A stretch of DNA of 64,000 bases, taken from Eledone cirrhosa. Lineage: Eukaryota. Made by a program: the position numbers and the translations under genes. The stretch is from the NCBI GenBank assembly GCA_964016885.1, contig OZ024742.1:324322001-324386000 (forward strand). The letters are read 5' to 3'. This document shows, piece after piece, positions 809-63,845 of the stretch (position 1 is the first letter of the stretch; every line of letters begins with the position of its first letter). A model generated the notes under the pieces. It worked only from the letters and a program-made list of their open reading frames with translations, ran no database searches and was not told the DNA's origin.

Positions 809-1930
809 TCATCCCTTGAATCGCAAGAATGTTTTGCATATTTTGAAGGTGCCAGCTATCGCAGCCATTTGTAGACTATGAATTAGGGAGCTGCGCTTTT
901 TGTCCGCAAATCCAAGTTCGGTCATACTTTGGTCCAAGCGGGTTGGTATATAACCCGTAGCACCAATAATGATGGGTATGAAGCTAAAGGTGTATCTTGG
1001 ATACTGGATTTGTAAGCTCCTCATCAATGGTCCGTAGATGTCCTCCTTCTCCTGTATTTTTCTGACAACGTTTACATCAAGTGGGCAGCTGATCTCCACA
1101 ACAGAACACGTTTTCAATGTGTGGTCCCAAACTACAATATCAGGCCGGTTGTGCTTTAATTTGGTGGCAGTTTTTATTTTCAGGTTCCACCAGTATTCCT
1201 TAGTGCCATCTGTCTCAATATATTCTTCCTCGTTTGTTGTTAATTTTGTTTTCCGAAGTGCGTTCCAGATAGTTCTAGCTATCCCATCGTGTCTCATGGG
1301 GAGGTAGTAGCGAGATGACTTTCTTTCGCAGCTGGCAACAATGTGGCTTACATCCTCGATCTTTGTTTTACATAGCCTACATTTATTGTCAGCTGCTGGC
1401 CCTCCTCTTTTGTGCAGCAGATATTTGGTAGGGAGTTCTTGTTCCTGTATTGCATAGAGATATCCCTCAAGGTGTGATGTCATAAACTTGTCGGAACTCC
1501 ATGCCAGGCTTTTTGAGTGGTTTATCCCCTCTATGGTCTGTGTTTTACGCCTCAAGTATCCATGCACAACTTTCTCTGTAAATTGGTCAATTTTCTTTTC
1601 TTGTTTGAACATTGAATAGGATCTTCCGATTTCTCTGGGTGAGAGATTTATATCAGGCTTTATTCCATATCTCTCCTCCAGATCAGTCGCTATTCTAATG
1701 ATATTTCTTTTTTCATGCTCATAAACCTGAGCAAGATGGTCGCCAACCTTTTTCCTCTGTTGAAGGTGTTGCTTCAGTGTTACTATCCGGGTCTCATATG
1801 TTGTTAATATTGATTTTAGACCCCGGCCACCTTCCTTGCGTGAGAAGTATAGCCTATCCACATCACCATTGATGTTAAAGTTCCTGATGTTTAACACTGA
1901 GAAGTTTTCGAGTTCTAACATCCATCTCAC
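809..1930 (-). pseudogene. C-terminal part of the R4/Dong-like ORF: CCHC finger and RLE nuclease
   Basis: Motifs RLYFSRKEGGRGL, AIQEQ, CRLC..EDVSHIVASC, RHD, RPDIVVWD, VVEISCP..K..Y and PIIIGATG are the typical RLE-clade signature. Confidence 0.9.
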
Positions 1931-1972
1931 TTAGTTCTTGCAATGACCAGTTCAGTAGGCCAAATGTTGGCG

Positions 1973-3820
1973 TTAGAATTGGCACAGCATAGGTATTGTG
2001 GGCAATGTATTTGTTGTATGCTGACAGTTCTGATGACCATATTTTTTTACTCTTCTGAGGTATTCAGTTCTGGTTCTCTCCTTATTTATGGGTCCATCAT
2101 ATCTGACATTCTCATCCTGTCCAAGATATCTGTAGTTGTCACCTGACTGCAGAGGTTGTATTGTCAGGCCGTTCATATCTAGATTTCTAGAGGAGGGCAC
2201 AGCTCTTCCACGTTTTACTGCCAAATATGCACACTTGGACTCACCAAATTTCATTTTGATGTCGGTTGAAAATTGTGTAATGAGGTCCAATTGTTTCTTG
2301 ATGTCATTGATATTTGGCCCATACAACTTCAGGTCATCAACAAAGAAAAGATGGGAGATACTTCTGGGCCCACTTCTTTGTCCACCTTGTTTCCTGAGTA
2401 GGTAAGATAGTGGATTCAGTGAGAGAACGAAGAGTAGTACTGACAAGCTATCACCCTGAAAGATGCCCTTCTGGTAATGTATCCTATCAGTCTTAACCTG
2501 CTCCTTCTCACCTCTAAGGATCAAATTGGTGTACCAGTTCTTGGTCAGGCGTTCAACAGCAGCTACTAATGGTTGTGGGACTTTAGCTAACTGTAAAGCC
2601 TTAATAATCCACCCATGAGGTACACTATCAAATGCTTTTTGATAGTCCAGCCACACGACAGTCATGTTTCTGCGATTCTTTGTTGTTTTTTCCTGAATCA
2701 TTTTGTTAGTTAGTAGGTGATCTATGCAATCCCACACCTCCCTCTTTCCACCAGCTTGCTCAGGTGTTATGATGTTGTTGGTAGCACAGTGATCCTGTAA
2801 GAACAGGTTAAGGCACCCAGTATATAATTTATACATGATGTTTTGGCAGGCAATTGGGCGGTAATTTTTAGCAAGGGTGGTTTGGCTATTTTTGGGAATG
2901 AGGAGAGTAGTGGCAGTTGATAACCATCTGGGCAGTTCTTGTGTGCCCTTAATGGTTTCTGTAAACAGCCGTATGAGATCTTGCCGATAGAAAGTGAAAT
3001 TCTTCAACCAGTATCCTGTAATGAGGTCTGGGCCTGGCGATTTCCTATTCGACATTTTCTGTAGAGCTGTTTCCAGTATTGACCCATCTATGTCATATTG
3101 TTTTGTCTGGACATGTTGGCAGTAGTCCTGTTCCAGTTGTTTTAGCCAATTAGCTTGTCTGTTGAATCCGTCATCCGTTTCCCATACAGATCTCCAGTAG
3201 CTCTCAATCTGTTCTTTTGAAGGGGTGTCGTTTACAGGGATTGAGCTTTTGCCACCGAAGCTGCGATAAACTGATTTAGGATCTCTGGCAAACAATCTAT
3301 TTAGCACTTGTCGTTTATGGGCTGTTGACTTATATTTTAGTCTTTCTGTTGTAGCTGTGAGTTGTTGTTTCAACTGGTGTAATTTGGAGTTCAAAGTTTT
3401 AAATTTGGTATCTCCAAATCGTCTCTCTAACTTTTTCTTTAGGTCTTCCTGGTGTCGTGTGAAGTTTCTCTCTATGTTGCATTTCATAACGACTGCGATG
3501 TGTGAGATACTTCGTCTCAGGGACAAAATTTTGGTTTTTAAATTTCGCATCCACGCTGGTTCAGGCTTTCTGTTTGTATCTTGATTGCGTGGTTTTAGAT
3601 GTGTGTTATATGATAGCAATGTGACAGCTGAAACATATAACAAAACATTGAGCGTTTCAAATGTCGTTTCTATACCTTTAGATCGTATAGCCTTCAGATA
3701 ATTGCCAGCTATTTCGTTCACCGCTTCCAATTCCAATTTAGTGGGTTCTTTACTGACTCTAGTGTTGTATGGTCTGTCACTCACATTAGGCTGTGTATCT
3801 CTTGAAACATATCGTTCCAT
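1973..3820 (-). pseudogene. Reverse transcriptase region of the R4/Dong-like ORF
   Basis: Motifs KSPGPD, NYRPIAC, WLDYQKAFDSVPH, GIFQGDSLS, HLFFVDDLKLY and YRYLG. Confidence 0.92.
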
Positions 3821-4320
3821 ATCACTTGTAGCGTGCCCACAAGTTTTTGGTGCTCTGTTTGTTCAGTAGAGTCATGAATTGCAGCCTCGTTGTTGATGTG
3901 GTGACAATTACTACTAGAGTCAGCTGACCTTTCTCGCTGTTCTTCAGTGGAAGTGGGATGGATTTCAGCAAAATTGTTGGTGAGCTGTTCACTGTTAGAT
4001 TTAGCTGGCCATTCTCTTTGTCTGTCAGTGGAGGTGGGGTGGTTGTCTACAAGGGCTGTATTTGTAGTATCACTCGATTCCGTTAGATGTATCAATTTAC
4101 ATCTAATGATACGTTTTGCCTGTTCATTTAGATGCTTTGGAGAAAAGTCTAATTCTGGGTGTTTGGAGTTCCATAAAGTTTTTAGCCTTTGCATAAAACC
4201 GAACTTTTGGGGTTCAGATTGTTTGTATGCTTCATATAATTCTTTGTTAAGCTCGTAGCTCCACTGTATACAATGGTTGTAATTGCGATTTGGTCGAAGG
4301 AGACTTGTACTTTTTGCCAT
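3781..4320 (-). pseudogene. N-terminal fragment of the R4/Dong-like ORF
   Basis: Overlaps the RT ORF in a shifted frame. W..ELN..LY..Y....P...G.M.RL..LW...HP pattern as recalled for the N-terminus of this clade. Confidence 0.6.
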
Positions 4321-5643: not shown

Positions 5644-8343
5644 TGTATGTGTATATGTGTTTATGCATGCACGTGCGAATTTGTGTGTCTATGTATAATT
5701 TAGCTGACAACTAGAATATACACTTAATCTATTTTATTGTGGAAAATAGTTTTGCTCGTAAAATTAATAACTATTTCACCGCCATTAATTTAGCCTACAT
5801 ATTTTTATAAAGACCGCTGACGTACAGAGCCATTTCAATGTCGCCATTATACATCTGATTAAAACGTACATAAGAGCTCGCAAAAGCATGAACATTTTCA
5901 GAAAACGTATAATAAATAAATCTCCATTCCATTATCTCGAAACGAGTTTATTTTAATGGAATTTATCAAGATTGAAGGGTTAGGAACGACGTTATCAATC
6001 AGTTGGCTTTGTTGTTGTCAGTTACTCTTGCTGCTGTTGCTGCTAATGTTGCTGATGTTGTTAGTTACTTTTGTTGTTGTTACTGTTGTTGTTTCTGTTG
6101 TTGTTGAACTCAGATCAGCCATGATTGAATAAATCGAATATCAAATGACTTAATTCGTCACCCGGTTTAACACCACCACTTGACTCGGTGCCTTTAACAA
6201 AGCCCTTTCTATTGTAAGCATTCGAGTTTAGTCTCCGGTTTTTCAAAGCGACCAGATTGAATGGGGATGGCAGGGTATAATAAGTCGTGCGACAACTTAG
6301 AGGCTGCTTCTTTGGATCTAGATGCTAGAGTCTAGTCTGTAGGTGATGTAGCTGCTATATGATGTAGCTGTTATCTGGATAAGTAGAGTGTTAGAAAATG
6401 CTGTATTTTGTGAGGCAAGGAGCTGTTTGTAGTTTGTACCCATGATGTTTCGCAAGCTTTGACGAACTTCCAAAATGCGGAAGTTGTCAATGGTGTTTTG
6501 TGGTATCGTGTAGATCAACTCTGAAGTGGAGGGTCTCTCTATGTTTCGTGGGCCCATGGATCTTCACCGAGAAATTTCCCCATCAAGGCGGAAGCCCGGA
6601 AAAGTTTTTCATGTGTCAGACGAGCCGGCGTCTTTGCATGCAAATCTGCCATCACTATACCATTCAAGGGAAAAGCAGGGGCCAATGCTGCCTAACACCT
6701 GTGCCGTCGCAGGTAAACTTACACTGCAAAATGCAGAAACGGTCACACCAAGATATTACGTGCGATGCTCTAAGAATTTTGGGAATCTACAGCCCGACTG
6801 GTACATTATTTATCGAGCTCAAAAGAATGAAAGGAAAGTTGATTTCACCGGAATTTGAATTCAGAAAGCAAACAGACGGGACAAATATAGCATGGAATTT
6901 AATTCGACATTGTAACAACTCTCCCAATTCGTTGCCTGTGGATCAGATATAAGGAGTCATGATACCAACTACTGCAGACAGTTCAGAGTGCGAACATTTC
7001 AGACACTGAGCCTTCAGAATCGATATGAGAAATGTACAGAAGCCAACAACAACGAAATACCCAACCACAACTCTTCAACTAACAAGTCTCTCAAAGTTTC
7101 AACAACAATGTGCGCAGTCAAATGACTGAGGATGATCACTTAAGATAAAGGGATGAGTTTACTAATTTATCATCAACGCAGGACAAGATATAATTGAAAA
7201 GTTGCTGGTTGTTTTACTAGAAGAGGTTCGAGTTAAGGAGAGTTAATAAATGAGACGTCGAGCCAGAGTAGCTTTATTACTGAAATGTAAGTAAATTTGA
7301 TGCATGGAAACATGATTCTATGCATGCAGAAAAAAAGCAACTAAATTCACAACCAAGCTGGAAGAGTGAATGCAACTTAGACAACAGGGATAGACGAGAG
7401 ATTTGTCTCAGAAGGATAAAATTAATATATATTTTCTCGTTTGAAAAGATGTAATGTACACTTTCAGCTTAATAGAAAAAAAACGTTTCAGATTTACTGT
7501 TCTTTCAATATCTATTCCGGAATTGGTTAGTTGTCTTAAACTTCTCAATGTATCTTGATGATAATCGATTCGAGTTTGCGTGAGACAATCATACAATCAA
7601 TCGATTCATACGCGGATACAATCGATTTTAGTATGTAGAATGTTTATACTAGAAGACTATCCTGCTGAGCTGTCTTCACCTAAAATTAACCCATGTAATG
7701 CTGAGCCAATAAAAGAGCCTCCATGCGGTCGTTCGATATGATAGAAATAGCAACCATATGATTCTCCAACGTCTTAAAAGAAAAAGAGGAAGTACATATT
7801 TTGTAACATCGTCCTAAATATACAAGAAAAAAAATTAAAACTTACAGCGTTTGATCATAGATCATCACTATCCCCCCCCCCACACATATATATATATATT
7901 ATTCAATTTAGGAAAGTCGGTTGATTAGATAATCCACCGACCTTTGTTTTAAACAGAAGTAAAGCACTCTACGAATTTGTATTCCTTAAAATGTTATTGA
8001 TAAGGTATCAACTGGAGTATCGATATCATAAAGAAGATAGACGGTTATAATACACAGAGGATGTACATTTAAAACTGTCTCCCCTCTTTATAATATATAT
8101 ATATAAAGAATTCGACAATGCAGGTTCGGACAGAGAAAAAATCAAAACGTAAGAAGCAGGGTTTTTTTATTTTTACCTTAATTTGTCCAGATGTCGGATG
8201 AAGAGATATTAATCTGGAAATATCAGGACATATGAGTATGTCCAAATCTCTGTCCAAATCTGCATCTCGTGGCTTTCTAACTTCGAATTCTTTATACCAT
8301 ATACAATGCTTCAAGTAAACTACAAATTCTTTCTTTATATATC

Positions 8344-8379
<36 letters not shown>

Positions 8380-8647
8380 ATCTATATATCTATCTACACT
8401 TACATACATAAATAAATACATACATACACATATATATTTATAGGTACGTCTCAGTGTCTGTCTATGTCTGTGTTTACGTTTATAGCGGTTTGCTAAAAAG
8501 GAGATCGATAGAATGAACAGAAGACTTGAATAAACATACTATAAGTAATGGGGCCAGTAAGATTGACTAACCAAATCCTGTAAAATTATAAAAGATAAAA
8601 AGAGTAACTTAATACAATTTCAAAGTATCACCATTAAGTTTATTCAG

Positions 8648-8740
8648 GCGTGACGCGCGTTTCGTGATTAATCAGCCCAAAGTTCGACCTGTATCGATCG
8701 GGCACAATACTGGAATCAATAGCTCATCAGTCTCTACGTA
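8648..8740 (-). ncRNA. Hammerhead ribozyme motif in a PLE pseudo-LTR remnant
   Basis: Minus strand CTGATGA-(long branched stem II)-GAAAC-GCGC-GTC, followed by AATAAA. Stem I is weak. Confidence 0.6.
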
Positions 8741-8896
8741 TCGAGTGCTCAAGTTGGTGAACCAATAGTAACGTAAAGTTACAATACACAAAGAGTTGTA
8801 GTGCACCTCATTTTACTAGCTTCAAGAACGCGTCTACACGACGTGAGAAAGAATCCCAAAAGGTAGACGCGTTCTTGAAGCTAGTAAAATGAGGTA

Positions 8897-8986
8897 TCCT
8901 CTTGATAAGTCGGCAGACCTCGCAAAGACTCTATATCTTTGTGATGTATTGTTTTTGTTTATGCCACGAAACTACGTAGTCGAGGA
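8897..8986 (+). ncRNA. Type I hammerhead ribozyme, U3-A8 core variant (copy 1)
   Basis: TCCTC-TTGATAA-GTCGGCA...TGCCAC-GAAA-CTACGTAG-TC-GAGGA: 5-bp stem I, extended stem II with inner hairpin TCGCAAAGA/TCTTTGTGA, palindromic stem III. Predicted cleavage after C8981. Confidence 0.8.
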
Positions 8987-9489
8987 ATCTAGGAGCAGTT
9001 TAGGTATGATACATTTTATTACTAATTGTATCTAAATGTTTCTTCTCTCTTCATAATGTATTTTTGACTCTGATACTGGTTCGGTCTAATTCAACCGGAT
9101 TGGTCTGTCCCAGTCATTCATTGAGAAACATCGGTAAGGTTGGCACCATTAACTCACGGTTGGGTGTGGATGCATTCATGTATATGTGTGTGTCCGCATG
9201 TATCTGTGTGTTTCTAAATGTGTTGTTCATGACTCCCTCTGGTCGAGTAATCTTTGAAGTGTGGTGACTGCTGGAAAGCTGCCATTACTCATACTTCTCG
9301 CCTCCTTCACCACCTCTTCTACGGCTTCGATATAAATACCCCCTCCGCCTCCGTGGTATTTTCTTCGGGGTTATAAGAGGCTTAGCTCTGTTTCTCGACC
9401 GTTATATCGCGTGACTATCTCCCCCTCCGCCTTTTGGGATTCTTTCTCACGTCGTGTAGACGCGTTCTTGAAGCTAGTAAAATGAGGTA

Positions 9490-9579
9490 TCCTCTTGATA
9501 AGTCGGCAGACCTCGCAAAGACTCTATATCTTTGTGATGTATTGTTTTTGTTTATGCCACGAAACTACGTAGTCGAGGA
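9490..9579 (+). ncRNA. Type I hammerhead ribozyme, U3-A8 variant (copy 2)
   Basis: Identical to copy 1. Predicted cleavage after C9574. Confidence 0.8.
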
Positions 9580-10082
9580 ATCTAGGAGCAGTTTAGGTAT
9601 GATACATTTTATTACTAATTGTATCTAAATGTTTCTTCTCTCTTCATAATGTATTTTTGACTCTGATACTGGTTCGGTGAAATTCAACCGGATTGGTCTG
9701 TCCCAGTCATTCATTGAGCAACATCGGTAAGGTTGGCACCATTAACTCACGGTTGGGTGTGGATGCATTCATGTATATGTGTGTGTCCGCATGTATCTGT
9801 GTGTTTCTAAATGTGTTGTTCATGACTCCCTCTGGTCGAGTAATCTTTGAAGTGTGGTGACTGCTGGAAAGCTGCCATTACTCATACTTCTCGCCTCCTT
9901 CACCACCTCTTCTACGGCTTCGATATAAATACCCCCTCCGCCTCCGTGGTATTTTCTTCGGGGTTATAAGAGGCTTAGCTCTGTTTCTCGACCGTTATAT
10001 CGCGTGACTATCTCCCCCTCCGCCTTTTGGGATTCTTTCTCACGTCGTGTAGACGCGTTCTTGAAGCTAGTAAAATGAGGTA

Positions 10083-10172
10083 TCCTCTTGATAAGTCGGC
10101 AGACCTCGCAAAGACTCTATATCTTTGTGATGTATTGTTTTTGTTTATGCCACGAAACTACGTAGTCGAGGA
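10083..10172 (+). ncRNA. Type I hammerhead ribozyme, U3-A8 variant (copy 3)
   Basis: Identical to copy 1. Predicted cleavage after C10167. Confidence 0.8.
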
Positions 10173-10408
10173 ATCTAGGAGCAGTTTAGGTATGATACAT
10201 TTTATTACTAATTGTATCTAAATGTTTCTTCTCTCTTCATAATGTATTTTTGACTCTGATACTGGTTCGGTGAAATTCAACCGGATTGGTCTGTCCCAGT
10301 CATTCATTGAGCAACATCGGTAAGGTTGGCACCATTAACTCACGGTTGGGTGTGGATGCATTCATGTATATGTGTGTGTCCGCATGTATCTGTGTGTTTT
10401 TAAATGTG

Positions 10409-10461
<53 letters not shown>

Positions 10462-10466
<5 letters not shown>

Positions 10467-10608
10467 ATATTTGGGGAGGGTCATATTGTTATAATATTGC
10501 CAGAAATAATAACAGAACACACTCACTGTTATTATTTCTGGCAATATTATAACAATATGACCCTCCCTAAATATAACAATATTTGTTTCAACACACGATT
10601 TCATATAA
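10462..10608 (+). mobile_element. Miniature hairpin derivative of the 19.9-24.5 kb PLE family
   Basis: Near-perfect inverted arms (about 10460-10514 and 10527-10581). Encodes [17 protein letters not shown], the N-terminus of ORF 20313. Inserted in (TA)n. Confidence 0.8.
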
Positions 10609-10636
10609 ATATATAAATATATATATATATATATAA

Positions 10637-11451
10637 CATATCGCCAATTGTGCTCACAACCAGCATCCAAACTTCAAAATTTTCCCCATTTACAAATTCA
10701 TAGACAACGCTACTTTCATCCAACGTACCAATAAGGAAACATATTTCATTAGCAAATTCCAACCTCTACTTAATGCTCTAAAAATCGGACCAATCTAAAA
10801 CTGCAACAAACAATCAAACATTTACAAGAGTTACTTCCCTCACACCCTACCTAATCCTTTTTCTTAAATAAATTAAATATCATGCAGCAAGAATTGCTTC
10901 CCCCTGCATATTAACTCTCTAAAAAGGGAAATCATATCAAACCTCAGTCCACCATTTGCCTCCATCATGGAATCATGGATCAACTAAGCACTCTTGCTAT
11001 ATTAACACATTTTGATCTGCTTAACTTCAAGAACTATGCCTGTAAATAACATTATTTTTTCTTCCACATTGACTTTTTATGCTCTACATTATGTCCGTTT
11101 TCTTTTTCTTTTTTCTTTTTTCTTTTTTCTTTTCACTTCATAAACCTTGTTTGTAAATAACATTATTCTTTCTGCACCTTCTCTTTAACATGTGTGACAC
11201 CACACTAATACATTTCACTATCATTTGATAATGCATAAAAATGGTGAAACCGGTAATAGAAAATTATTAAACATATAAATATATAAATAAATGCCATTGT
11301 TAAATAATAAATAAATCAACTAATACCTTAACACTTCACATAAAGTAAAACATTTCGTTTTAATTATTTTCTAACCCAGAAAAGAGAGAGAGAAACAAAA
11401 AAGAAAAAAAATATTTTTCTTCCTAATAATCGTCTCTTTCTCCCTGTTTTC
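10637..11451 (+). mobile_element. 5'-truncated PLE: GIY-YIG C-terminus plus 3' UTR
   Basis: 10637-10798 translates to HIANCAHNQHPNFKIFPIYKFIDNATFIQRTNKETYFISKFQPLLNALKIGPI* (R..E..FI...P.LN, a GIY-YIG tail). Degenerate HHR TTGATAA..GAAACCGGTA at 11218-11259. (TA)n on both sides. Confidence 0.75.
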
Positions 11452-11454
11452 ATA

Positions 11455-11590
<136 letters not shown>

Positions 11591-11662
11591 TAGCGAAGCA
11601 AACGGTTATTAAACAATTTTCTAAATAAATTAAAAAATGATTAAATAATCACCTGTTCAGAC

Positions 11663-11743
11663 GCTGTTACCGACGGTTTCATCATTCCGAAAGATTGAAA
11701 ATCCAACGAATTTCTAATGGAAAGAAATGAATCTTCAGACAGC
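11663..11743 (-). ncRNA. Type I hammerhead ribozyme (inverted arm)
   Basis: Reverse complement of 12028-12108 with about 2 substitutions in stem II. Confidence 0.8.
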
Positions 11744-12027
11744 CCTATTTCCACGCCATAAGGTATCTAGCCTAATGGCAAGTAAATATTATGCTCCCTG
11801 CCCAACGCATGCGGTCAAGCCGTTAAAATGACACACACGCAAATCAGGTCGCTGATAAAAGCTGGATATTATAAACATGTCGAATTGCCACTAAAATTAG
11901 AATATCCAGCTTTTATCAGCGACCTGATTTGCGTGTGTGTCATTTTAACGGCTTGACCGCATGCGTTGGGCAGGGAGCATAATATTTACTTGCCATTAGG
12001 CTAGATACCTTATGGCGTAGAAATAGG

Positions 12028-12108
12028 GCTGTCTGAAGATTCATTTCTTTCCATTGGAAATTCGTTGGATTTCCAATCTTTCGGAATGATGAAACCGTCG
12101 GTAACAGC
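12028..12108 (+). ncRNA. Canonical type I hammerhead ribozyme
   Basis: GCTGT-CTGAAGA-TTCATTT...GAATGAT-GAAA-CCGTCGG-TA-ACAGC. Confidence 0.85.
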
Positions 12109-12290
12109 GTCTGAACAGGTGATTATTTAATCATTTTTTAATTTATTTAGAAAATTGTTTAATAACCGTTTGCTTCGCTACTTTTATATTGTTCTGGTAT
12201 CTCGAATTAGTGCCATTGAACCACATGTATTATAAACAACTTGAATATTTCTACAGGTACATTGTACCTGTTGAAGTATCCATCCACTTC

Positions 12291-12319
<29 letters not shown>

Positions 12320-12322
<3 letters not shown>

Positions 12323-12492
12323 ATGAGATTCTACAGGACTAGAACTGTTTCATTCTTGAGAAATATAGCCGTCGAAACCGCTTGAGCTCTGCCGCCGGGG
12401 TCATACTTTTTCCTATTACCCACTCTACTACCCTAAGTATTGAGTACTCTGGTGCGTTATGGTCCATCTGGTTCCTTACCACAATTCCTTCG

Positions 12493-12495
<3 letters not shown>
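12320..12495 (+). mobile_element. Chimeric short PLE-end insertion (family B inverted arm plus family A arm)
   Basis: 12329-12356 matches 31079-31105. 12366-12495 matches 32586-32715. Flanked by (TA)n. Confidence 0.65.
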
Positions 12496-12527
<32 letters not shown>

Positions 12528-13106
12528 GTGTGTATCAATTCAAATGATGATAGTAACTGTGATGAGTAGAAATGGTAGTTCTAAAAATCTGTAGCGTACC
12601 CTTGGAGACCATCTAGCTCTAGGCTTGAAATCTTTAAAAAAGACATAATTAGCGGGTAGAGACTCTATATACTAGTGTTTAATGCATTTACCCGCTTCCT
12701 GAAAAATGCGGGTTTCGATTAATCGCAGGCGTACGAGACCCGATTTGCTAAATCAAACGAAACAACCATACCTATAAATACTACCTGCTAATATAATTAA
12801 CCGTCCTCCCTATCTAATATATTGAGTATTTTACCAATAATTGTGATCTCCTTCCATTGATCAACATTCTACAATATCTATCTATCTATCTATCTCTCTG
12901 TCTGAAGCGTGGAAAATTGCCGGTAAGATTCTTTGTAAATTTATATACGAAAAACAGAACAAATTGTTTGAAAAAACATATTATTTTGTAGATTAACCCC
13001 GAAGATGAATTGTCAGCTGGGTGGTAATCCCATTTTTCTCCCCTTTAGGGGCGAAAATTTAATTTAAAAATTGTTATAAAATATCAAATTTTGCCAACTA
13101 TAAAAC

Positions 13107-19840: not shown

Positions 19841-19915
<75 letters not shown>

Positions 19916-20089
19916 TTGCGAGGTTTTTTATATGAAATCGTGTGTCGAAACAGATATTGTTATATTTGGGGAGGGTCATATTTGCGTAATATTGCCAGAA
20001 TTAATAACAGAACACACTCACTGTTTGGTTGGTTTTCGCTTCTCGCGTAGACATACAACACAACAGGAGGAACAATGAATATAACACCA

Positions 20090-20117
20090 CTGACGATGTT
20101 GCAGATGTGCAACGAAA
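20090..20117 (+). ncRNA. Hammerhead-like core in pseudo-LTR (second copy 24231-24258)
   Basis: CTGACGA-tGTTGCA-gatg-TGCAAC-GAAA with a perfect stem II. Stems I and III were not convincingly closed by eye. Confidence 0.45.
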
Positions 20118-20312
20118 GATTTATGTAAACTATATATATATGTGTTTGTCTATATTGTATCTGTATTATTTTTGACCGCCGGTCAGTCAATGGCAACATT
20201 GAGGACCGAGTAAGTTAGATCGCAGATATATATATATAAAAGACAGCGAGAAGCGAAAACCAACCAAACAGTGAGTGTGTTCTGTTATTAATTCTGGCAA
20301 TATTACGCAAAT

Positions 20313-23300
20313 ATGACCCTCCCCAAATATAACAATATCTGTTTCGACACACGATTTCATATAAAAAACCTCGCAAAACTAATTCATCGCCGCTATGGCA
20401 TTAGCTTGTGCCAAGCTGAAAGGTTATTGAAAGACACTGTTTTCTGTTATATAAAAACTACAATAACAACAGAACAAATCCGCTTCTTAAAACACTGTGT
20501 TTCCTCCAAAACATACACAACAAACATATCAAAACAAGTAAATAATTTATTATTGAACAAAACACAAGCTGAACGGCTAAAACACACAATAACAGTTAAT
20601 ATGAAAAGAACAACATACACAAAAGTCAACGCACTCTACAGACAAAAACGCATCAACGGTAAGGAAATCCGAAATCTCATCACAGCAAACGAGAGAGATG
20701 ACTTCATGAGCGTCATCCGACGCGAAACGAAATATGCTCAAAACGAATGCTGTAGGCATTTCAAGAAGAAATTAGAATGGATGAATAAGAAAAAACTACA
20801 AGAAAGGAAAATCGAATATTCTCAAAAATACCCAGATAACATCGACAACATCCGTATGAGTGATGTAAAACTACCGGAAGAATTTACCAATGACCACACA
20901 GTAAATATCTATGGGAACACTTTAATCAGTGAACAAGAACAACAAATCCTAAAGTTACCACCAAAATTTGCCATCTACAAAAAGATTAATCCTATGGAAT
21001 GCAAAACGGAGCTGGAAAAGTGTTTCACAAAAATACGTTGGAATGCAAAGGTAAACAACAACAACAATAATAACGGTAGTAGTAATATAAACAATAACTC
21101 TGGGTATAGAAATAACAGCCATAACCATAACAATGGCAGGAAAGTGAGAAATAGTGATAATGGTAATAATACTAGCGATAGACAGAACAACAACAACCAC
21201 AATAGTAATAATAATAGAAACGTTAACCACAGACACAGCAACAGTGACCACAGTAGTAATAACGGTAACAATACGAACAACAACAACAACAATAACCACA
21301 GTGGTAATAATGGAAATAGTACATGTAGCAACATCAACAAAAACAAAAACAAGAAACATAATAATAGTAACAACCACAATGGTAGAAATAGCAGTAACAA
21401 CAACAACAATAACGGTGAAGTAAACAACAATACATCTAGCAATCATAACAATAATAATATTAATGCTAAGGATAGAAACAACAACAACCACCATGATAAC
21501 AATAATAGCAACACACACAACTATGACGATAGAAATAACGACAACCCCTTAGAGAAACTATTTTTCAACCCAGCTGACAAAACATATAAGATGGGTAATA
21601 TCTATCCTACGAGGTTACCCTTTAATAAAAGAGTTTGCATACCACAACAAATAGATGACGAGACGGAGGCACAGTTCACCATAGCTAGAAATAAGATTAG
21701 ACAAGTAGTAGACAGGTACACTATGAGACAGAGCAGACCAGAGGCCCAACAACTTGGGATAAAACCTGTAGAAGGCTTGGTTAGCCTCAAGCAGCGCACA
21801 AGGGATGGTGAGGTAGTGTGTCTACCCACAGATAAGTCTGGTAGGATGTCAATAGATAGCATGCCGAACTACATCGAGGCAATGCAACCCCACATCACCA
21901 ACACGAGCGAAGTTGCACAACTAACACACGATGGGAGAGAAAAAATCCTCAACGCTCACATGATGATGTGGACTGACATCCTAAAGCCAAGCAGACGCAC
22001 TGCCAACAACTTCCAGGCGTCTAACAATGGCATACCACCCTTGTATGGGCTCCGCAAAGACCACAAGACTGTCGACGACCCGACAATAGGACCACCAACA
22101 AGACCTGTATGCGGAGCTAATATAGCTAGCAACTACAGGATCTCCTACTTCCTCTCAATGGTTATACGCCCCATAATCAAGATGTCCCCAGATGTATGTG
22201 AAAGTACAGAGGACCTCCTCAGCAGAATCAGTGAGTGCAACAAAAACAGGAGCCTATCCAACTGCATAATAGGCAGCATGGATGTGGTGTCACTGTACCC
22301 ATCCATTAACATTGATTTTGCTGTGAAAAGATGTGTGGAGATGATCATTGAGAGTGAGGTGGAGTTCTGCGACGTCGACACAGACGAACTGGGCCTCCTA
22401 CTTAGACTTACCTACGACACTGACTACCTAGACAGCCATGACCTTAGATGTTTCTGCCCTAGTAGACCTATAAGAGGTAGACCCCCCACCATAACCTCAA
22501 TGGCTAAAAAGACTCCCATAGGAAGGTGGATTGGGTGGACCAAAGCTATACGGACCCCCCAAAACACTGATCAGGTAAGAAAAATGGTCGCACATGCAAT
22601 AGGGGCTAGTATCAAAACTACCCTAAAGGGCCACATATTTAAGTTCAATGAGAAAATCTACACCCAAAATGAGGGAGCAGCCATCGGCGTCAGCATAGCT
22701 GGCGATGTTGCCAACCTTTTCATGGTATGGTGGGAAAGGAGACTTAAAGATCTCCTTAATGAAAGCTCCATAGACCTCATCATGTACTCTCGTTATGTAG
22801 ACGATATCAATATAGTTATAAGAACACCCCCACTAGAGAGCACTAACAAGTTTGATTTAGAACGTAGCACGATGGAAAGCATCCAGCAGATAGCTAATTC
22901 CATACACCAGAGTATAACTGTAACTATAGACTTCCCTTCCAAACACCCTAACAATAGACTACCTGTATTAGACACAGAACTCTGGATCAACACTATAGAC
23001 GAGAGAGCCCAAATTCTCCACTCACACTATGCTAAACCCATGGCCTCCAAATACCTGATACTCAAAAACTCAGCAATGTCCAGTAGTGCTAAGTTTAATA
23101 TTCTGATCGCAGATTTGGTACGAGTGATGAAGAATGTGTCCAGCATGTGCGACCCAACAGAAATGGAAGGACACATCCAACACTTCATCAACCGCATGCA
23201 GTTCTCTGGCTACAACCAAAGAGACAGAGTCAGAGTATACGAAGGAGCCATGGAAAAGTATAAGACCCTCATAGAACTGGACATGAAAGGAATTTGCCCA

Positions 23301-23951
23301 CTATACAGGAGCAAATCATGGAATAGCTTAGATAGGGCTAGACATAAGATAGGGAAGGCCACATCATGGTACGACAACCAGAGATATCAGAGTGTCATGT
23401 TTGTGGACGCCACCCCTGGAGGGAAATTAGCTAACCAGTGTAGAAAGGCCCTGAGAAAGACCCACTTAAAAATAAAGGTGGTAGAAAAGCCAGGAACCAC
23501 CATAAAATCCCTGATCAGCAAAACCTACCCTTTTAAGAAAACCCACTGTACCAATAGGAAATGTATCATATGTAAGGTGAACCCCCGGATAAACTGTAAA
23601 ACTAGAAACGTAGTCTATAGCATAAGATGTACAGAGGGTACTTGCAGAAACACGACAACAACATACATAGGTGAGACAGCTCGTAGCATAGGTGAAAGGA
23701 TAGACCAACACTGGGGGGAACTAAAAGGACGAAAAAACGGGTCAGTACTATATGAACATGCTAGACAACATCATGACGGTAACATAGACAACATAGAAAT
23801 TAGAATAATATCTAAACATAGGAATGACCCAGCAGATAGGCAAATCAGAGAGGCCAGTGAAATAGAAATTAGAAGACCAAAGCTAAACAGAAAGAATGAG
23901 TGGAACAACAACAACACCCAAACAAACAACACTGACCTAAGAGAAGTATAA
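20313..23951 (+). CDS. PLE polyprotein: RT plus Cys-rich linker plus GIY-YIG endonuclease (Neptune/Nematis-like; clade not resolved)
   Basis: 1212 aa uninterrupted. Motifs TDKSG, LYGLRKDHK, RPVC, DVVSLYPSI, GAAIG, YSRYVDD, LPVLD, C.NRKCIIC, NVVYSIRC..YIGETAR...R..QH, IREA.EI..LNRKNEW. Confidence 0.95.
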   Translation: MTLPKYNNICFDTRFHIKNLAKLIHRRYGISLCQAERLLKDTVFCYIKTTITTEQIRFLKHCVSSKTYTTNISKQVNNLLLNKTQAERLKHTITVNMKRTTYTKVNALYRQKRINGKEIRNLITANERDDFMSVIRRETKYAQNECCRHFKKKLEWMNKKKLQERKIEYSQKYPDNIDNIRMSDVKLPEEFTNDHTVNIYGNTLISEQEQQILKLPPKFAIYKKINPMECKTELEKCFTKIRWNAKVNNNNNNNGSSNINNNSGYRNNSHNHNNGRKVRNSDNGNNTSDRQNNNNHNSNNNRNVNHRHSNSDHSSNNGNNTNNNNNNNHSGNNGNSTCSNINKNKNKKHNNSNNHNGRNSSNNNNNNGEVNNNTSSNHNNNNINAKDRNNNNHHDNNNSNTHNYDDRNNDNPLEKLFFNPADKTYKMGNIYPTRLPFNKRVCIPQQIDDETEAQFTIARNKIRQVVDRYTMRQSRPEAQQLGIKPVEGLVSLKQRTRDGEVVCLPTDKSGRMSIDSMPNYIEAMQPHITNTSEVAQLTHDGREKILNAHMMMWTDILKPSRRTANNFQASNNGIPPLYGLRKDHKTVDDPTIGPPTRPVCGANIASNYRISYFLSMVIRPIIKMSPDVCESTEDLLSRISECNKNRSLSNCIIGSMDVVSLYPSINIDFAVKRCVEMIIESEVEFCDVDTDELGLLLRLTYDTDYLDSHDLRCFCPSRPIRGRPPTITSMAKKTPIGRWIGWTKAIRTPQNTDQVRKMVAHAIGASIKTTLKGHIFKFNEKIYTQNEGAAIGVSIAGDVANLFMVWWERRLKDLLNESSIDLIMYSRYVDDINIVIRTPPLESTNKFDLERSTMESIQQIANSIHQSITVTIDFPSKHPNNRLPVLDTELWINTIDERAQILHSHYAKPMASKYLILKNSAMSSSAKFNILIADLVRVMKNVSSMCDPTEMEGHIQHFINRMQFSGYNQRDRVRVYEGAMEKYKTLIELDMKGICPLYRSKSWNSLDRARHKIGKATSWYDNQRYQSVMFVDATPGGKLANQCRKALRKTHLKIKVVEKPGTTIKSLISKTYPFKKTHCTNRKCIICKVNPRINCKTRNVVYSIRCTEGTCRNTTTTYIGETARSIGERIDQHWGELKGRKNGSVLYEHARQHHDGNIDNIEIRIISKHRNDPADRQIREASEIEIRRPKLNRKNEWNNNNTQTNNTDLREV

Positions 23952-24471
23952 ATAAATAAGTAAATTAAATTAAATAAAATAAGATAAATAAATACATACA
24001 CAAGCACATAAACACACACTAGTCACCCAGCAGACACAACACTATACACACTAGTCACACATCACACATAACACTATACACACACGCAAACGCATGCGCA
24101 AAGAAGACAAAATAAAATAAGATAAACAAACAAGCAAATAAATAAATAAATATATAGACAGACTGAACAAAAAAAAAAAAAAATGGCGTAGACATACAAC
24201 ACAACAGGAGGAACAATGAATATAACACCACTGACGATGTTGCAGATGTGCAACGAAAGATTTATGTAAACTATATATATATGTGTTTGTCTATATTGTA
24301 TCTGTATTATTTTTGACCGCCGGTCAGTCAATGGCAACATTGAGGACCGAGTAAGTTAGATCGCAGATATATATATATAAAAGACAGCGAGAAGCGAAAA
24401 CCAACCAAACAGTGAGTGTGTTCTGTTATTAATTCTGGCAATATTACGCAAATATGACCCTCCCCAAATAT

Positions 24472-24517
<46 letters not shown>

Positions 24518-36420: not shown

Positions 36421-36636
36421 TTAACCCTTTAACATTTAAACCGGTCGTATCCGGCTAGAATTCTCTCACTTCTTTCTGTTCAAACCGGCTGTAACCAGCC
36501 GCTCATACCTAAATTAAGGTATTGTTTTCGAAATAAATAATACCAACATCTCATAGATTCAATATTATGTCAGATAAAGCCTTTACCGTGAAAATAAAAA
36601 AGTAAATATAGAGTATTGTAAATGCTAAAGGATTAA
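36421..36636. mobile_element. piggyBac-type MITE
   Basis: TTAA-CCCTTTAACATTTA ... TAAATGCTAAAGG(A/G)-TTAA: inverted termini bounded by TTAA. Confidence 0.55.
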
Positions 36637-36927
36637 ATAGGAACCCTTAAAATACAATAGTAAATATAGAGTATTGTAAATGCTAAAGGGCTAAATAGGA
36701 ACCCTTAAAATACAATAGTAAATATAGAGTATTGTAAATGCTAAAGGATTAAATAGGAACTCTTAAAATACAATAGTAAATATAGAGTATTGTAAATGCT
36801 AAAGGATTAAATAGGAACCCTTAAAATACAATAGTAAATATAGGGTAATGTAAATACTAAAGGGCTAAATAGGAACCCTTAAAATACAATAGTAAATATA
36901 GAGTAATGTAAATACTAAAGGGCTAAA
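36601..36927. repeat. 58-bp minisatellite, about 5.6 copies
   Basis: Units start at 36601, 36659, 36717, 36775, 36833 and 36891. Confidence 0.92.
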
Positions 36928-37340
36928 TTTCTTTGTTTTAGGAATTGAGAAGTTCGGACATGTGGTTGGTAAATAATTATGCTATTTATGTTGTTTAAAA
37001 GATTCTGTTGAAATCAATACGGTAGAAATGTGTTTTCCTATTGATTTGATAGAAATGTTCGTAAATTAATTACATAATTTAATGTAATTCAATCCTGGTT
37101 CTTTTTATTCATTTTATATATGTGCTCTGTGATATTGTAAAATTACTGTGATTAGAAATTTACCTATAGCATTAAACTCTGAACTGACTTTTACCTATCT
37201 TGCTGTTGACTATATTTGAGCTTTGATTTAGTCTTTGCCTCTATATGGTTGTGTTATTAGCGTAAAACTAATAATATATTTCTTTATTGTACTGTGTCGT
37301 TTGCTTTGTTATGTCTGTTTACATTTTACACACACACACA

Positions 37341-44808: not shown

Positions 44809-44848
44809 GTGTTCCTGCCTTTTCTCTCCTTAACTCTTCTTCACCAAC

Positions 44849-47697
44849 ATGGCGACTATACAAGCTGGATGTTTGAATGTACGTGGCCTGGGCATGTCCT
44901 GGAAAGAGGACCAGCTTTTAAATGATCTCAGGTCACATTGTATAGATGTGATAGCCATCACCGAGTCCAGAATTCACGACAAGCAGCAGCTAACCCCCAA
45001 GTTCGATGATTTTGAGATCTACACATCTCTCTGTCAGCCAGGAGGTGGAGGGGGAGTTGCTGTTCTGTTTCGAAAAAACCTGGATCTCAAAATACAGACG
45101 ATTCACTTGGACCCGGAGGGAAGCCTGGTGGTTCTGGACGTGAATGGTAGTGAAGGTGGAGCTTTCAGACTGGTGGCCGTATATGCCCCGACTGGGACAT
45201 CGCGACCAGAGTTCTTCAAGCGTCTGGAGCCATTCCTGGGAACGTCTCGCTCCTTAGTGTTAGCGGGGGACTGGAATGGCATCTTAGACGCACGTTGGGA
45301 CTATGTAGGAGCTTGTGATAATAGAGGGGTGTGTAATAGCCTAAAAAATCTCACCAGCCAATTCCAACTGGCTGATAGAAATCGACTAGACTTCCCAAGT
45401 GCACCACTGTGGACGTGGAGCAACCGCACTGGGTCTTCTAGATTGTATTTAAATAGATTTTTAATTAGACAGAATGATAAGGAAACATTAAGCTGTCCAC
45501 AAATGCACATGGTTGCCTAAACAGACCACAAATTAGTCACCTGCGTAGTCAACCTTGATAGAACACATAGACAGGGACCCGGATACTGGAAGCTAAACAT
45601 GTAGCTCCCGGCGCGTAAGGCATACAGTAAACGGATTAGCACCTTAGTTAAGTGCCAGTTGACGGGGGCGATCGTCAACAACAGGTGGTGGAGCTCTCCC
45701 AAGAGAACAATTTGAATAGAATCAATAGCATTTAGCAAGGAAGTAGCTTTAGAAAAAAACAAAACTGAAAAGGAACTGGTAGCTAAAGTAGAAGAGGCAC
45801 TTAGGAATGGCAGTACAGCTGACGTGCTAGCGACGAGAACGGCAATAGACCAGTTCTTCAACGTGAAATACGAAGGTTGTATTGTCAGAAGTAGAACACG
45901 TGCTCTAAGAAACGAGGGAGCCAAAGCTGTTAGCTGGGCCCGAGTGGCAGATGCAAAAAGTGGCAACAAATCCACAATTCGGTCTTTGCAAGACAAAGAT
46001 GTACGCATTATACTTGAATCCAAGCAGATGTGCACGACCTTCCAGCAGCATTTTGCACAACTGTTCGGGCAAAGGGGTACATCGAGCGAGGTGATGGACT
46101 TTAGCTCCTACCTCGACGGCGTACCGCTACTCTCGAGCACGGATGCGGAGAGTTGCGAAAGGCCGATCACAGCGGGAGAAATAGAAGATGCCCTAGGCCG
46201 CTGCGGGAAACGCAAATCACCCGGTTTAGATGATCTACCCTATGAGTTTTACATAGGCATGCCAGACTTGTTCGAAGCGGTCTACTGCAACTGGCAGCAG
46301 AATGGGAGGATTCCCAGTTCTGTAGGCAGAGGAGTAGTAACGCTGATCAGGAAAGATGAGAACAAGGGGGGTGAGATAAGCAATTTCAGGCTCATAATTC
46401 TGCTCAACACAGAGTTAAAGATTTTGGCCGAGGTGTTAGTAGCAAGGCTGGCGCTTGTCGTCGAGAACCTGGTAGGGGAAGCCCAAACGTGTGCATTCCC
46501 GACCAGGTCCATACACAACAACCTCCACCTCATGCGATACATCATAAAGAGGGTAGGGTGTAAACCTGGCTTTGGTGGGGCTCTGATCAATTTAGATCAA
46601 TCTAAGGCATTTGATAGGGTCAACCATCAATACTTGGAAGCAGTTCTCAAGGCGGGCGGCTTCGGTCCCGTCTTCAGAGGCTGGATCGCTGCCATGCACA
46701 CCAGCATCTGCTCGGCAGTCAAGGTGAATGGCTACCTATAAGAGCCATTCCAAATCATGCGTTCCATCCGTCAGGGATGCCCTCTCCCCTCCATTCGGTA
46801 TGTACTGACTCTCGAGTCGTTACTGCGGAAATTGGAGCTGTTGCAGGGCATCCCGATCGAACCAGAACTGCGGAAAGCAGCGTCAACCTATGCTGACGAC
46901 ATAACCGTAATGGTGTCGAAAACCTCGGAAATCAGGGTAATCGGCAACCTTTTACAGGAATACGAAACGTTGACAGGAACAAGACTAAACCCAAACAAGT
47001 CTGTCGGTTTGCAACTCGGCGCATGGAGAGGCAAACCCATGCCTTCCGACAGTGTCGTTGGACGCTGGACGAAAGGACCGGTGAAATTGCTCGGAGTCTT
47101 GTTTGGTCCAGACCTCCAGGTGGACAAGAACTGGAACGAGGTCACGGCGAAGGTGTTTGCACTCACCCAGAAGTGGGCTGAGTGCAAACTCTCCTTGAAA
47201 GGTCGAGCGGAGGTGGCGAACACTTACATAGCGTCCGTCATCTACTACCGCTTGACAGTCGTGCCTTGCCCCCGCGAATACCTTACCAAAATGGAACGCC
47301 TATTCTTCAAGTTCCTCTGGAAGAAACAGGCTCCATTGGCGAGGAGATCCATCTGCTGTCAACACCCTTCTAACGGAGGGCTGGGCATGCCGTGGCTGAT
47401 GATGCGCAAACATGCGCTGAGGCTACGCCATCTCCAGGTATTCCTGACCGGTGAACCGGTGTGGCTGTCGTTTGTGAGACAAGCTCTTCCACAACTCGTC
47501 TCACTAACAGAGCTGCAGTCCTGGGTCAAGCGAAACCAAAAATGGGTGCCTAGCACCTCGAGTGCCTACAGGTGCTTACAGCCCTCTACCAAGCGGAAAC
47601 GGCAATCAGCGGAGACTCTACTTCGACATTCTATAGGGGATTAGTGGAGGATAAGTGCGATGACGTTCTCGGGGAAACTCTAGGCATCGAGGAGGTC
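44849..47697 (+). pseudogene. LINE ORF2 (APE plus RT), disrupted
   Basis: Motifs CLNVRGL, AITES, VYAP, LAGDWN, KSPGLDDLPYEFY, LDQSKAFDRVNH, IRQGCPL, YADD, KLLGV, GGLGMP. Confidence 0.92.
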
Positions 47698-62700: not shown

Positions 62701-63845
62701 CTGTTGTTACTGTGGTTACTGTTGTTACTGTTGTTACTGTTGTTACTGTGGTTACTGTTGTTACTGTTGTTACTGTTGTTACTGTTGTTACTGTTGTTAC
62801 TGTGGTTACTGTTGTTACTGTTGTTACTGTTGTTTCTGTTTTTACTGTTGTTACTGTTGTTACTGTGGTTACTGTTGTTACTGTTGTTACTGTTGTTACT
62901 GTTGTTACTGTTGTTACTGTTGTTACTGTGGTTACTGTTGTTACTGTTGTTACTGTTGTTACTGTTGTTACTGTTGTTACTGTTGTTACTGTGGTTACTG
63001 TTGTTACTGTTGTTACTGTTGTTACTTTTGTTACTTTTGTTACCGTTGTTACCGTTGTTACTGTTGTTACTGTTGTTACTGTTGTTACTGTTGTTACTGT
63101 TGTTACTGTTGTTACTGTTGTTACTGTGGTTACTGTTGTTACTGTTGTTACTGTTGTTACTGTTGTTACTGTTGTTACTGTTGTTACTGTTGTTACTGTT
63201 GTTACCGTTGTTACTGTTGTTACTGTTGTTACTGTTGTTACTGTTGTTACTGTTGTTACTGTTGTTACTGTTGTTACCGTTGTTACTGTTGTTACTGTTG
63301 TTACTGTTGTTACTGTTGTTACAGTTGTTACTGTTGTTACTGTTGTTACAGTTGTTACTGTTGTTACTGTGGTTACTGTTGCTACTGTTGTTACTGTGGT
63401 TACTGTGGTTACTGTTGTTACTGTTGTTACTGTTGTTACAGTTGTTACTGTTGTTACAGTTGTTACTGTTGTTACTGTTGTTACTGTTGTTACTGTTGTT
63501 ACTGTTGAAACTGTGGTTACTGTTGTTACTGTTGTTACTGTTGTTACTGTTGTTACTGTTCTTACTGTTCTTACTGTTGTTACTGTTGTTACTGTTGTTA
63601 CTGTTGAAACTGTGGTTACTGTTGTTACTGTTGTTACAGTTGTTACTGTTGTTACTGTTGTTACTGTTGTTACTGTTGTTACTGTTGTTACTGTGGTTAC
63701 TGTGGTTACTGTTGTTACTGTTGTTACTGTTGTTACTGTTGTTACTGTTGTTACTGTTGAAACTGTTGTTACTGTTGTTACCGTTGTTACCGTTGTTACT
63801 GTGGTTACCGTTGTTACTGTTGTTACTGTTGTTACTGTTGTTATT
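59775..63845. repeat. About 4-kb 9-bp minisatellite (GTTACTGTT)n
   Basis: About 450 units with recurrent variants GTTACTGTG, GTTACAGTT, GTTACCGTT and GTTACTTTT. Confidence 0.97.

Follow-up and report, generated by a model that had tools for sequence, protein, structure and literature searches.

The window, a stretch of 64,000 nucleotides of the Eledone cirrhosa genome (GCA_964016885.1, contig OZ024742.1, positions 324,322,001 to 324,386,000 of the forward strand), contains a tandem array of 593-bp units at a (TA)n microsatellite, as well as an intact young Penelope-like element (PLE) and a fragment of an older one (Table 1). The period of 593 holds over 1,547 nt (8864-10410) with four mismatched bases (9086, 9087, 9126, and 9807). 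The units are purely head-to-tail, without a central region, and the longest stop-free frame of the circularised unit is 85 codons. TTGATAA recurs at 8902, 9495, and 10088, and GAAACTACGTAGTC ends at 8981, 9574, and 10167, while the inverted copy at the 5' end (8805-8863) matches 9430-9488 perfectly over its 59 nt. A sequence-only reading of the window is borne out in these respects, namely, in its claim of about 2.6 tandem units without an ORF, in that of a U3-A8 hammerhead per unit (all core positions of the predicted fold are found in each), and in that of a 3' end fused to (TA)n with an inverted copy at the 5' end. The box that it placed at 9330 and 9923 is present as well, with true starts one base further on, at 9331 and 9924. 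The inverted arm of the window is unusual for the family, as it has its outer end at unit position 507 rather than in (TA)n (unit position 1 being the first base 3' of the predicted cut site). The left flank of the array (8620-8800) is a lower-copy repeat with hairpin joints in the contigs examined. Elsewhere in the window, a 4-kb minisatellite, (TTACTGTTG)n, of about 452 copies (59776-63843) has several frames open, and a 58-bp tandem repeat (36591-36928) has 5.8 copies that are 95% alike. Pfam matches mark a LINE-type RT with zf-RVT (809-3862), a broken LINE with endonuclease and RT (44834-47644), and a Helitron Rep fragment (50958-52007).

Table 1. Features of the repeat array and of the PLEs in the window (positions count from the first base of the window).
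Feature	Position	Strand	Remark
Main arm, 2.6 tandem 593-bp units	8864..10410	+	5'-truncated at unit position 475; ends at tailed 3' site T
Inverted arm, unit positions 449-507	8805..8863	-	head-to-head with main arm
Predicted type I hammerhead 1	8897..8986	+	predicted cut after 8981
Predicted hammerhead 2	9490..9579	+	predicted cut after 9574
Predicted hammerhead 3	10083..10172	+	predicted cut after 10167
Cut-to-cut monomer, 593 nt, predicted circle	8982..9574	+	
Short 3' end site S, unit position 80	9041..9061	+	read through here, also at 9654 and 10247
Tailed 3' end site T, unit positions 238-249	10390..10410	+	used at window locus, fused to (TA)n
TATAAATA box	9331..9338, also 9924-9931	+	variable among copies
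(TA)26 target microsatellite	10410..10462	.	adjoins 3' end of main arm
Separate short head-to-head PLE-end insertion, same (TA)n	10461..10640	.	one short and one tailed end
3' fragment of older Neptune-type PLE	10649..11452	+	endonuclease end, then U3-A8 hammerhead at ~11222-11258; ends in (TA)n
Intact young PLE	19911..24479	+	stop-free frame 20292-23951; RT and C-terminal GIY-YIG

The predicted ribozyme comprises stem I (UCCUC/GAGGA), the core UUGAUAA with U3-A8, a long stem II closed by G-C, GAAA, and stem III (ACU-ACGU-AGU), followed by the C at the predicted cut. Hammerheads with U3-A8 are described as natural and active in vitro in passages of PMC3088659 and PMC4209133. An Rfam scan of 6000-13000 (E <= 10) gave 31 matches, none of them a hammerhead. 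Stem III had been read as a loopless palindrome, of which the palindrome stands and the looplessness does not, for in the monomer an ACGU tetraloop closes 3 bp, a fold computed to lie 1.1 kcal/mol above the minimum-energy fold. Between two copies, the palindrome could form a 10-bp duplex (-12.9 kcal/mol, computed). The active fold of the circular monomer is computed to lie 6.2 kcal/mol above the best fold, and the unit folds more strongly than shuffled sequences (z = -4.25 for the monomer that follows 8982..9574). Among 34 distinct ribozyme sequences, 97.7% of the stem cells are paired. Across the consensuses of three subfamilies, 3 of 44 ribozyme positions vary versus 125 of 549 elsewhere (p 0.012 on rotated sequences; a version with end gaps had given 6/44, p 0.19), and none of the 23 positions of the core and stem III does. 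Two of the three variable positions form one stem I pair (U-A in 24, U.G in 4, and C-G in 6 of the 34 sequences), which is the single pair with a two-sided change, while the four variable pairs in the distal 7-bp extension of stem II changed mostly in a wobble-compatible manner. The covariation sought in stems I-III is therefore present in one stem I pair, and since the ribozyme sequences are related, it probably reflects a single event. The invariance of the core across roughly 20% divergence suggests that the ribozyme is under selection, and self-cleavage of the repeat RNA is predicted from this conservation and the one compensatory pair.

In the 3.0-Gb genome, both halves of the core were matched exactly 7,025 times and the reversed control 0 times, so the hammerhead repeat is not a product of chance. 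Its copies are spread over many contigs at thousands of sites, which answers the call of the sequence-only reading for a genome-wide search for dispersed multimers and shows that the unit is not confined to a single locus. The canonical CTGATGAG core with the same stem III had 0 matches genome-wide, which argues against a C3-G8 sister family with that stem III; pattern scans of metagenome and viral contigs also gave 0 matches. Out of probably a few thousand loci, 140 distinct ones were read, i.e., a first set of 86 (the 26 closest to the window unit and 60 taken at 9 kb, of which 50 were among the first 100 pattern hits on contig 1 and 10 were further close matches to the window unit), and two more sets, of 26 and 28 loci, that represent two older subfamilies; ten loci that overlapped or recurred were removed. 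The three subfamily consensuses (593, 598, and 590 nt) are mutually 80-88% alike and are separated by frame-breaking indels, and neighbouring hammerheads lie 586-609 nt apart with no ORF between them. The TATA box of the sequence-only reading did not hold up as a conserved element, as 54 of the 88 units from the main subfamily have TATAAAT and 25 have TATGAAT, which is also found in 6 of 16 units of the second, and it is on that account a weak promoter argument. Apparent differences of terminal units at positions 114-117 were explained by gap placement. The window repeat belongs to a real, large, and young retrozyme family. Its unit had been thought longer than those of known animal retrozymes; 593 bp lies within the range of 51-972 bp given in a passage of 10.64898/2026.07.22.740005.

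Copies of the repeat end in (TA)n at two fixed sites, S (position 80) and T (mostly 238-249, classed as 205-250), while their 5' ends vary. Permuted ends had been expected; the 3' ends are instead fixed, and in three contig runs the same two end sites appear as loose (TA)n ends. The (TA)n target hides target-site duplications. In the first set, 50 of the 86 loci are head-to-head two-armed insertions, and one arm ends at S and the other at T in all 42 classifiable ones (binomial p 4.5e-13). The other eight, including the window locus, are unclassifiable, and on inspection three of them are three-piece insertions with S and T outside, which were left uncounted. The 36 single arms end at S (21), T (14), or elsewhere (1), and two that bear a very short T arm on inspection were likewise left uncounted. 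The second set gave S+T in 13/13 with five unclassed (scored by eye, one pair belonging to the main subfamily), and the third, for which the query favoured T arms, gave S+T in 13/14, also with five unclassed. The lone T+T case (L179) has one end without a TA flank. Over all sets, S and T are paired in 68 of 69 classifiable two-armed loci, with 18 unclassed. The tail of the repeat is about 160 nt, versus 43-66 nt in two PLE families measured. A pyrimidine-rich motif is common to S, T, and the Neptune ends; because it was defined after the ends had been seen and is of low complexity, it is a lead only.

PLEs are the closest relatives of telomerase RT. The intact young PLE of the window has a tailed inverted 5' arm and a short 3' end, and its 92 scored copies (40,747 candidates) are all identical over 460 aa. 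Its monomer measures 4,118 nt, several of its arms are longer than that, and a short end is combined with a tailed one (43-58 nt) in 17 of 17 head-to-head insertions, three further loci being cut off. It carries a C3-G8-type hammerhead-like motif and A/C-rich ends, and its protein has its best match (69%) in an Octopus vulgaris entry. The protein has an asparagine-rich insert and is not caught by Pfam RVT_1, and tandem and head-to-head copies of the element are common. As an ancestor of the unit this PLE was rejected, the best match being just 12 nt (E 0.27).

Other PLE families in this genome were found by a Pfam search for an endonuclease that we take to be Neptune-type, the clade being assigned by motifs, partly from passages of PMC8557442, and not by a tree. 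The older fragment of this type in the window has the same type of ribozyme core as the repeat. A U3-A8 hammerhead-like motif lies downstream in 20 of 30 Neptune-type loci, five with GCAA for GAAA, and the motif has 19,479 matches in the genome versus 5 for the control. In one subfamily (L191, L193, L206, L209, and L211), GCAA replaces GAAA in all five loci. A young Neptune-type family (L263-L282, e.g., L264:4210-8899) has a 409-aa first frame, a 775-aa RT-endonuclease frame, and a U3-A8 hammerhead, and the 775-residue frame, with 0-7 changes from one copy, is present in 16 of 20 fetched loci. In this family, the two ends fall 75 and 141 nt 3' of the cut, the hammerheads are spaced 4,689 nt apart, and short and tailed ends are combined in 8 of 9 pairs, the exception (L263, S+S) resembling part of an inverted duplication. 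The repeat and this family have in common the U3-A8 core, the distance from cut to short end, and pyrimidine-rich ends. Comparison of the unit with the window PLE, a second related family, the young Neptune family, and 30 GIY-YIG loci gave low-complexity matches only. Since no homology of the unit to either PLE was found, the Neptune partner stays a candidate, and the chances that this young family is the partner are evenly balanced. More generally, as the repeat encodes no protein and yet has the same lopsided two-armed ends as PLEs, it likely borrows a PLE enzyme. It is very probable that PLE machinery mobilises the repeat, and the mobilisation proposed by the sequence-only reading gains support from this end signature, common to the repeat and autonomous PLEs.

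The arrays themselves appear to be copied from one template each. Full units of opposite arms of the same insertion differ by 0-1 change in eight comparisons, and units of different loci by a median of 24 (5th percentile 7, minimum 1). In 35 loci with at least three copies, 21 rare variants are fixed array-wide, nine of them across both arms, 126 are singletons, and 13 are of intermediate frequency, several of the latter being the complement of a singleton. At L075, eight hammerheads in two arms show 0-2 differences inside the locus and at least 9 to any other, while three older arrays differ internally by 12-21 changes. Multimers made from one template, as had been proposed, are thus supported by the private variants common to both arms. 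The T arm extends beyond site S in 32 of 42 insertions, and both arms exceed one unit in 8 of 42. Template jumping between linear monomers is disfavoured because 202 cut-site junctions are free of insertions and deletions. Nor do 5' ends favour the cut site, where chance would place 4.4 of 130 within 10 nt and 4 are seen, which argues against a template end there. An apparent pile-up of 5' ends at the cut site was an artefact of linear queries and was gone with tandem references. The inner ends of both arms coincide within 15 nt (modulo 593) in 6 of 42 insertions (1.9 expected, p 0.011), a coincidence that is not significant at 30 or 60 nt and is kept as weak. In two arrays, a variant alternates between successive units (G-A-G-A at unit position 503 of L082 and T-C-T-C at 322 of L011), as a dimer circle would give, though these are single sites and may also reflect recurrent mutation. 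Judged from the genomic copies, the arrays come with good probability from a circular RNA template, and a circle accounts most simply for the private variants, the seamless junctions, and the distribution of 5' ends. Speaking against a circle are the variants of intermediate frequency, the internal changes of the three older arrays, an excess of 5' ends at unit positions 331-480, and the local duplications seen at L044 and L066, although the latter carry TA spacers.

It is rather unlikely, by comparison, that a PLE parasite with the same two-site priming was copied from the uncleaved linear read-through transcript of an existing array, with a hammerhead that is slow or acts later, and arrays that regrow by occasional duplication or template jumping. 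Unprocessed RNA is the main substrate of the Anolis PLE in vitro according to a passage of PMC11167929, uncleaved RNA would account just as well for the seamless junctions and for the missing pile-up at the cut site, and some of the intermediate-frequency variants also fit. Unit positions 331-480 hold an excess of 5' ends (53 of 130), as would be seen if linear transcripts started near the TATA-like box, though sampling could also be the cause. For the 4.1-kb PLE (L133-L149), the two arms of 4 out of 15 two-armed insertions reach template positions no more than 40 nt apart (0.5 expected), as if at one RNA end, which suggests that one RNA served both arms. However, linear copying with 5' truncation makes arrays shorter and never longer, and cannot alone fix 21 private variants, nine of them across arms. 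All that an active ribozyme could do to such a template is destroy it, yet the core has stayed invariant, and in three pairs the arms end on different turns at positions no more than 15 nt apart, a weak point.

Expansion after insertion, in which a short PLE-type terminal repeat was inserted once and then multiplied by local unequal crossover, is very improbable, even though arrays of vertebrate retrozymes are ascribed to it in a passage of 10.64898/2026.07.22.740005. Tandem duplication after insertion does occur in this genome, with whole insertions locally duplicated at L044 and L066. At L066:7070-8160, a short two-armed PLE insertion is present in four tandem copies with (TA)n between them, a local duplication through the microsatellite. 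These duplications carry TA spacers and both arms, unlike the seamless 593-bp units; moreover, the young array at L075 has near-identical units in two opposite arms, and the 4.1-kb PLE likewise has arms longer than its own monomer.

Attachment to a PLE ORF, which the sequence-only reading had named as speaking against a retrozyme, was looked for and seen at none of the 140 loci, 80 of which had flanks of about 1.5 kb only; since no copy joins such an ORF, the repeat is taken as a non-autonomous retrozyme. PLE proteins match 19 of the 140 loci, and in all but two the match lies beyond a (TA)n run; of these two, L040 also has a (TA)n run, and at L159 the match is 1.3 kb away. L050 and L040, considered as chimeras of retrozyme and PLE, were read instead as neighbours at a common (TA)n. 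At L159:1975-2450, an arm of the repeat joins a decayed GIY-YIG fragment of another PLE type without a TA spacer. An autonomous PLE that left these repeats as its 5'-truncated terminal repeats, and whose copies with an ORF went unsampled, is hardly credible, for although this sample of the few thousand loci is small and partly short-flanked, and the L159 junction would fit, the hammerheads are 586-609 nt apart here versus 4,118 and 4,689 nt in PLEs, an ORF is joined in 0/140 loci, and the subfamilies are separated by frame-breaking indels.

On balance, the repeat is likely a non-LTR retrozyme copied into (TA)n by a PLE enzyme from a circle of about 590 nt that had been cleaved and re-ligated. 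Together, the end rule, the multimeric arms that share variants, and the seamless junctions suggest that PLE machinery copied a single template, probably a circle, at the time of insertion. Six steps can be envisaged, namely, I) a read-through transcript of two units would be cut at both hammerheads to give the monomer; II) a host ligase would close the monomer into a circle; III) a PLE RT-endonuclease, probably a dimer and likeliest from a Neptune-type family with a U3-A8 hammerhead, would bind the RNA downstream of the cut site and cut both strands of (TA)n; IV) one DNA end would prime at S (+80) and the other at T (~+240) of the same RNA; V) both RTs would copy the template in a rolling manner, displacing strands, for as many as about five turns; and VI) microhomology would join the two cDNA ends head-to-head. 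Tentatively, and with some doubt, the PLE dimer may sit asymmetrically on one circular RNA, so that its subunits prime at their own sites and the two RTs chase each other round. If so, one mechanism would give rise to retrozyme arrays and, in PLEs, to the tail, the inverted arm, and the tandem pseudo-LTRs, and a ribozyme and two priming sites would suffice for a retrozyme, which need not descend from the terminal repeat of its partner.

The kind of element, the unit length, and the U3-A8 core are known already; new is the genomic evidence on mechanism, namely, the near-strict two-site pairing common to PLEs and the multimeric arms from one template. A literature search outside Repbase and most subscription papers found no description of the family or of PLE-type ends on retrozymes. 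What moves animal retrozymes and how their arrays arise is debated, as passages of PMC7761336 and 10.64898/2026.07.22.740005 show. According to the former, a review of 2020, retrozyme repeats show no motif that identifies their helper, while the latter, a 2026 preprint by Li et al. that prefers unequal crossover as the source of the arrays, reports homology of Xenopus retrozymes to PLE ends (24 of 57 families with Repbase matches) and in vitro cleavage of one in nine retrozyme dimers, eight having failed to cleave. Circles of animal retrozymes have been shown, with rolling reverse transcription and help from PLEs proposed (Cervera and de la Pena 2020, PMC7229834, in part). The repeat described here bears the PLE signature in nearly every two-armed copy, beside young intact PLEs with the same signature, and, as a defined RNA with two predicted start sites, it could enter the published in vitro PLE assay, for which there are two candidate enzymes.

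Like the animal non-LTR retrozymes of coral, mussel, and axolotl, as far as these are described in passages of PMC7229834 and 10.64898/2026.07.22.740005, the repeat consists of tandem non-coding units with type I hammerheads, has a palindromic stem III, a GC content below 50%, and a strongly folded monomer, and is present in thousands of copies in a genome that also contains PLEs. It differs from them in its U3-A8 core and very long stem II, and in its dispersed insertions targeted to (TA)n, where the 3' ends are fixed at two sites and the multimeric arms stand head-to-head, ends of a kind not described in those passages. Unlike 24 of the 57 Xenopus families, it matches no PLE terminal repeat tested, and whereas circular RNA has been shown for known animal retrozymes, that of the repeat is a prediction. 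In the giant squid, 235 hammerhead-1 hits are reported in a passage of PMC6962438 that describes no family. Chlamydomonas MRC1 and other non-autonomous Chlamys elements (PMC8557442, in part) are likewise PLE dependants in multicopy head-to-tail arrangement, but their 3' end generally resembles that of the partner, and the clade is mostly without canonical hammerheads. The same compensatory core pair is found in the U3-A8 hammerheads of Perreault et al. (2011; PMC3088659) and of the Schistosoma Cercyon PLEs (PMC4209133), the Schistosoma motifs numbering about 1,300 hits in passages of these two papers. Those known motifs are mostly single, heterogeneous, and minimal, whereas the repeat is a tandem non-coding family with a fixed core and a three-stem fold.

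There are also parallels with EN+ PLEs, i.e., the Neptune clade and the Anolis Poseidon PAc, as described in passages of PMC8557442, PMC11167929, and PMC3846280. They have in common with the repeat an AT-rich target, a tail at one end, partial-tandem and inverted 5'-truncated arms, and two RT start sites downstream of the hammerhead; a one-end tail with two start sites is described as PLE-specific (PMC11167929, PMC8557442). For PAc, the distance between the two internal start sites equals the tail, both strands are cut and extended, a dimer is predicted, no difference between strands is seen in vitro, and the hammerhead is dispensable for insertion in vitro (PMC11167929, in part). The distance from cut to start is about 85-92 nt in PAc (by subtraction), 75 in the local Neptune family, and 80 in the repeat. 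The repeat differs from EN+ PLEs in having no ORF and in its tail of about 160 nt, compared with 30-66 nt. Lastly, whereas the PLE tail is described as often at one end (PMC8557442) or as optional on one inverted repeat, with a self-priming model (PMC3846280), in the relevant passages, the pairing of one short with one tailed end is almost strict here, and this near-strict pairing constrains models of PLE integration.
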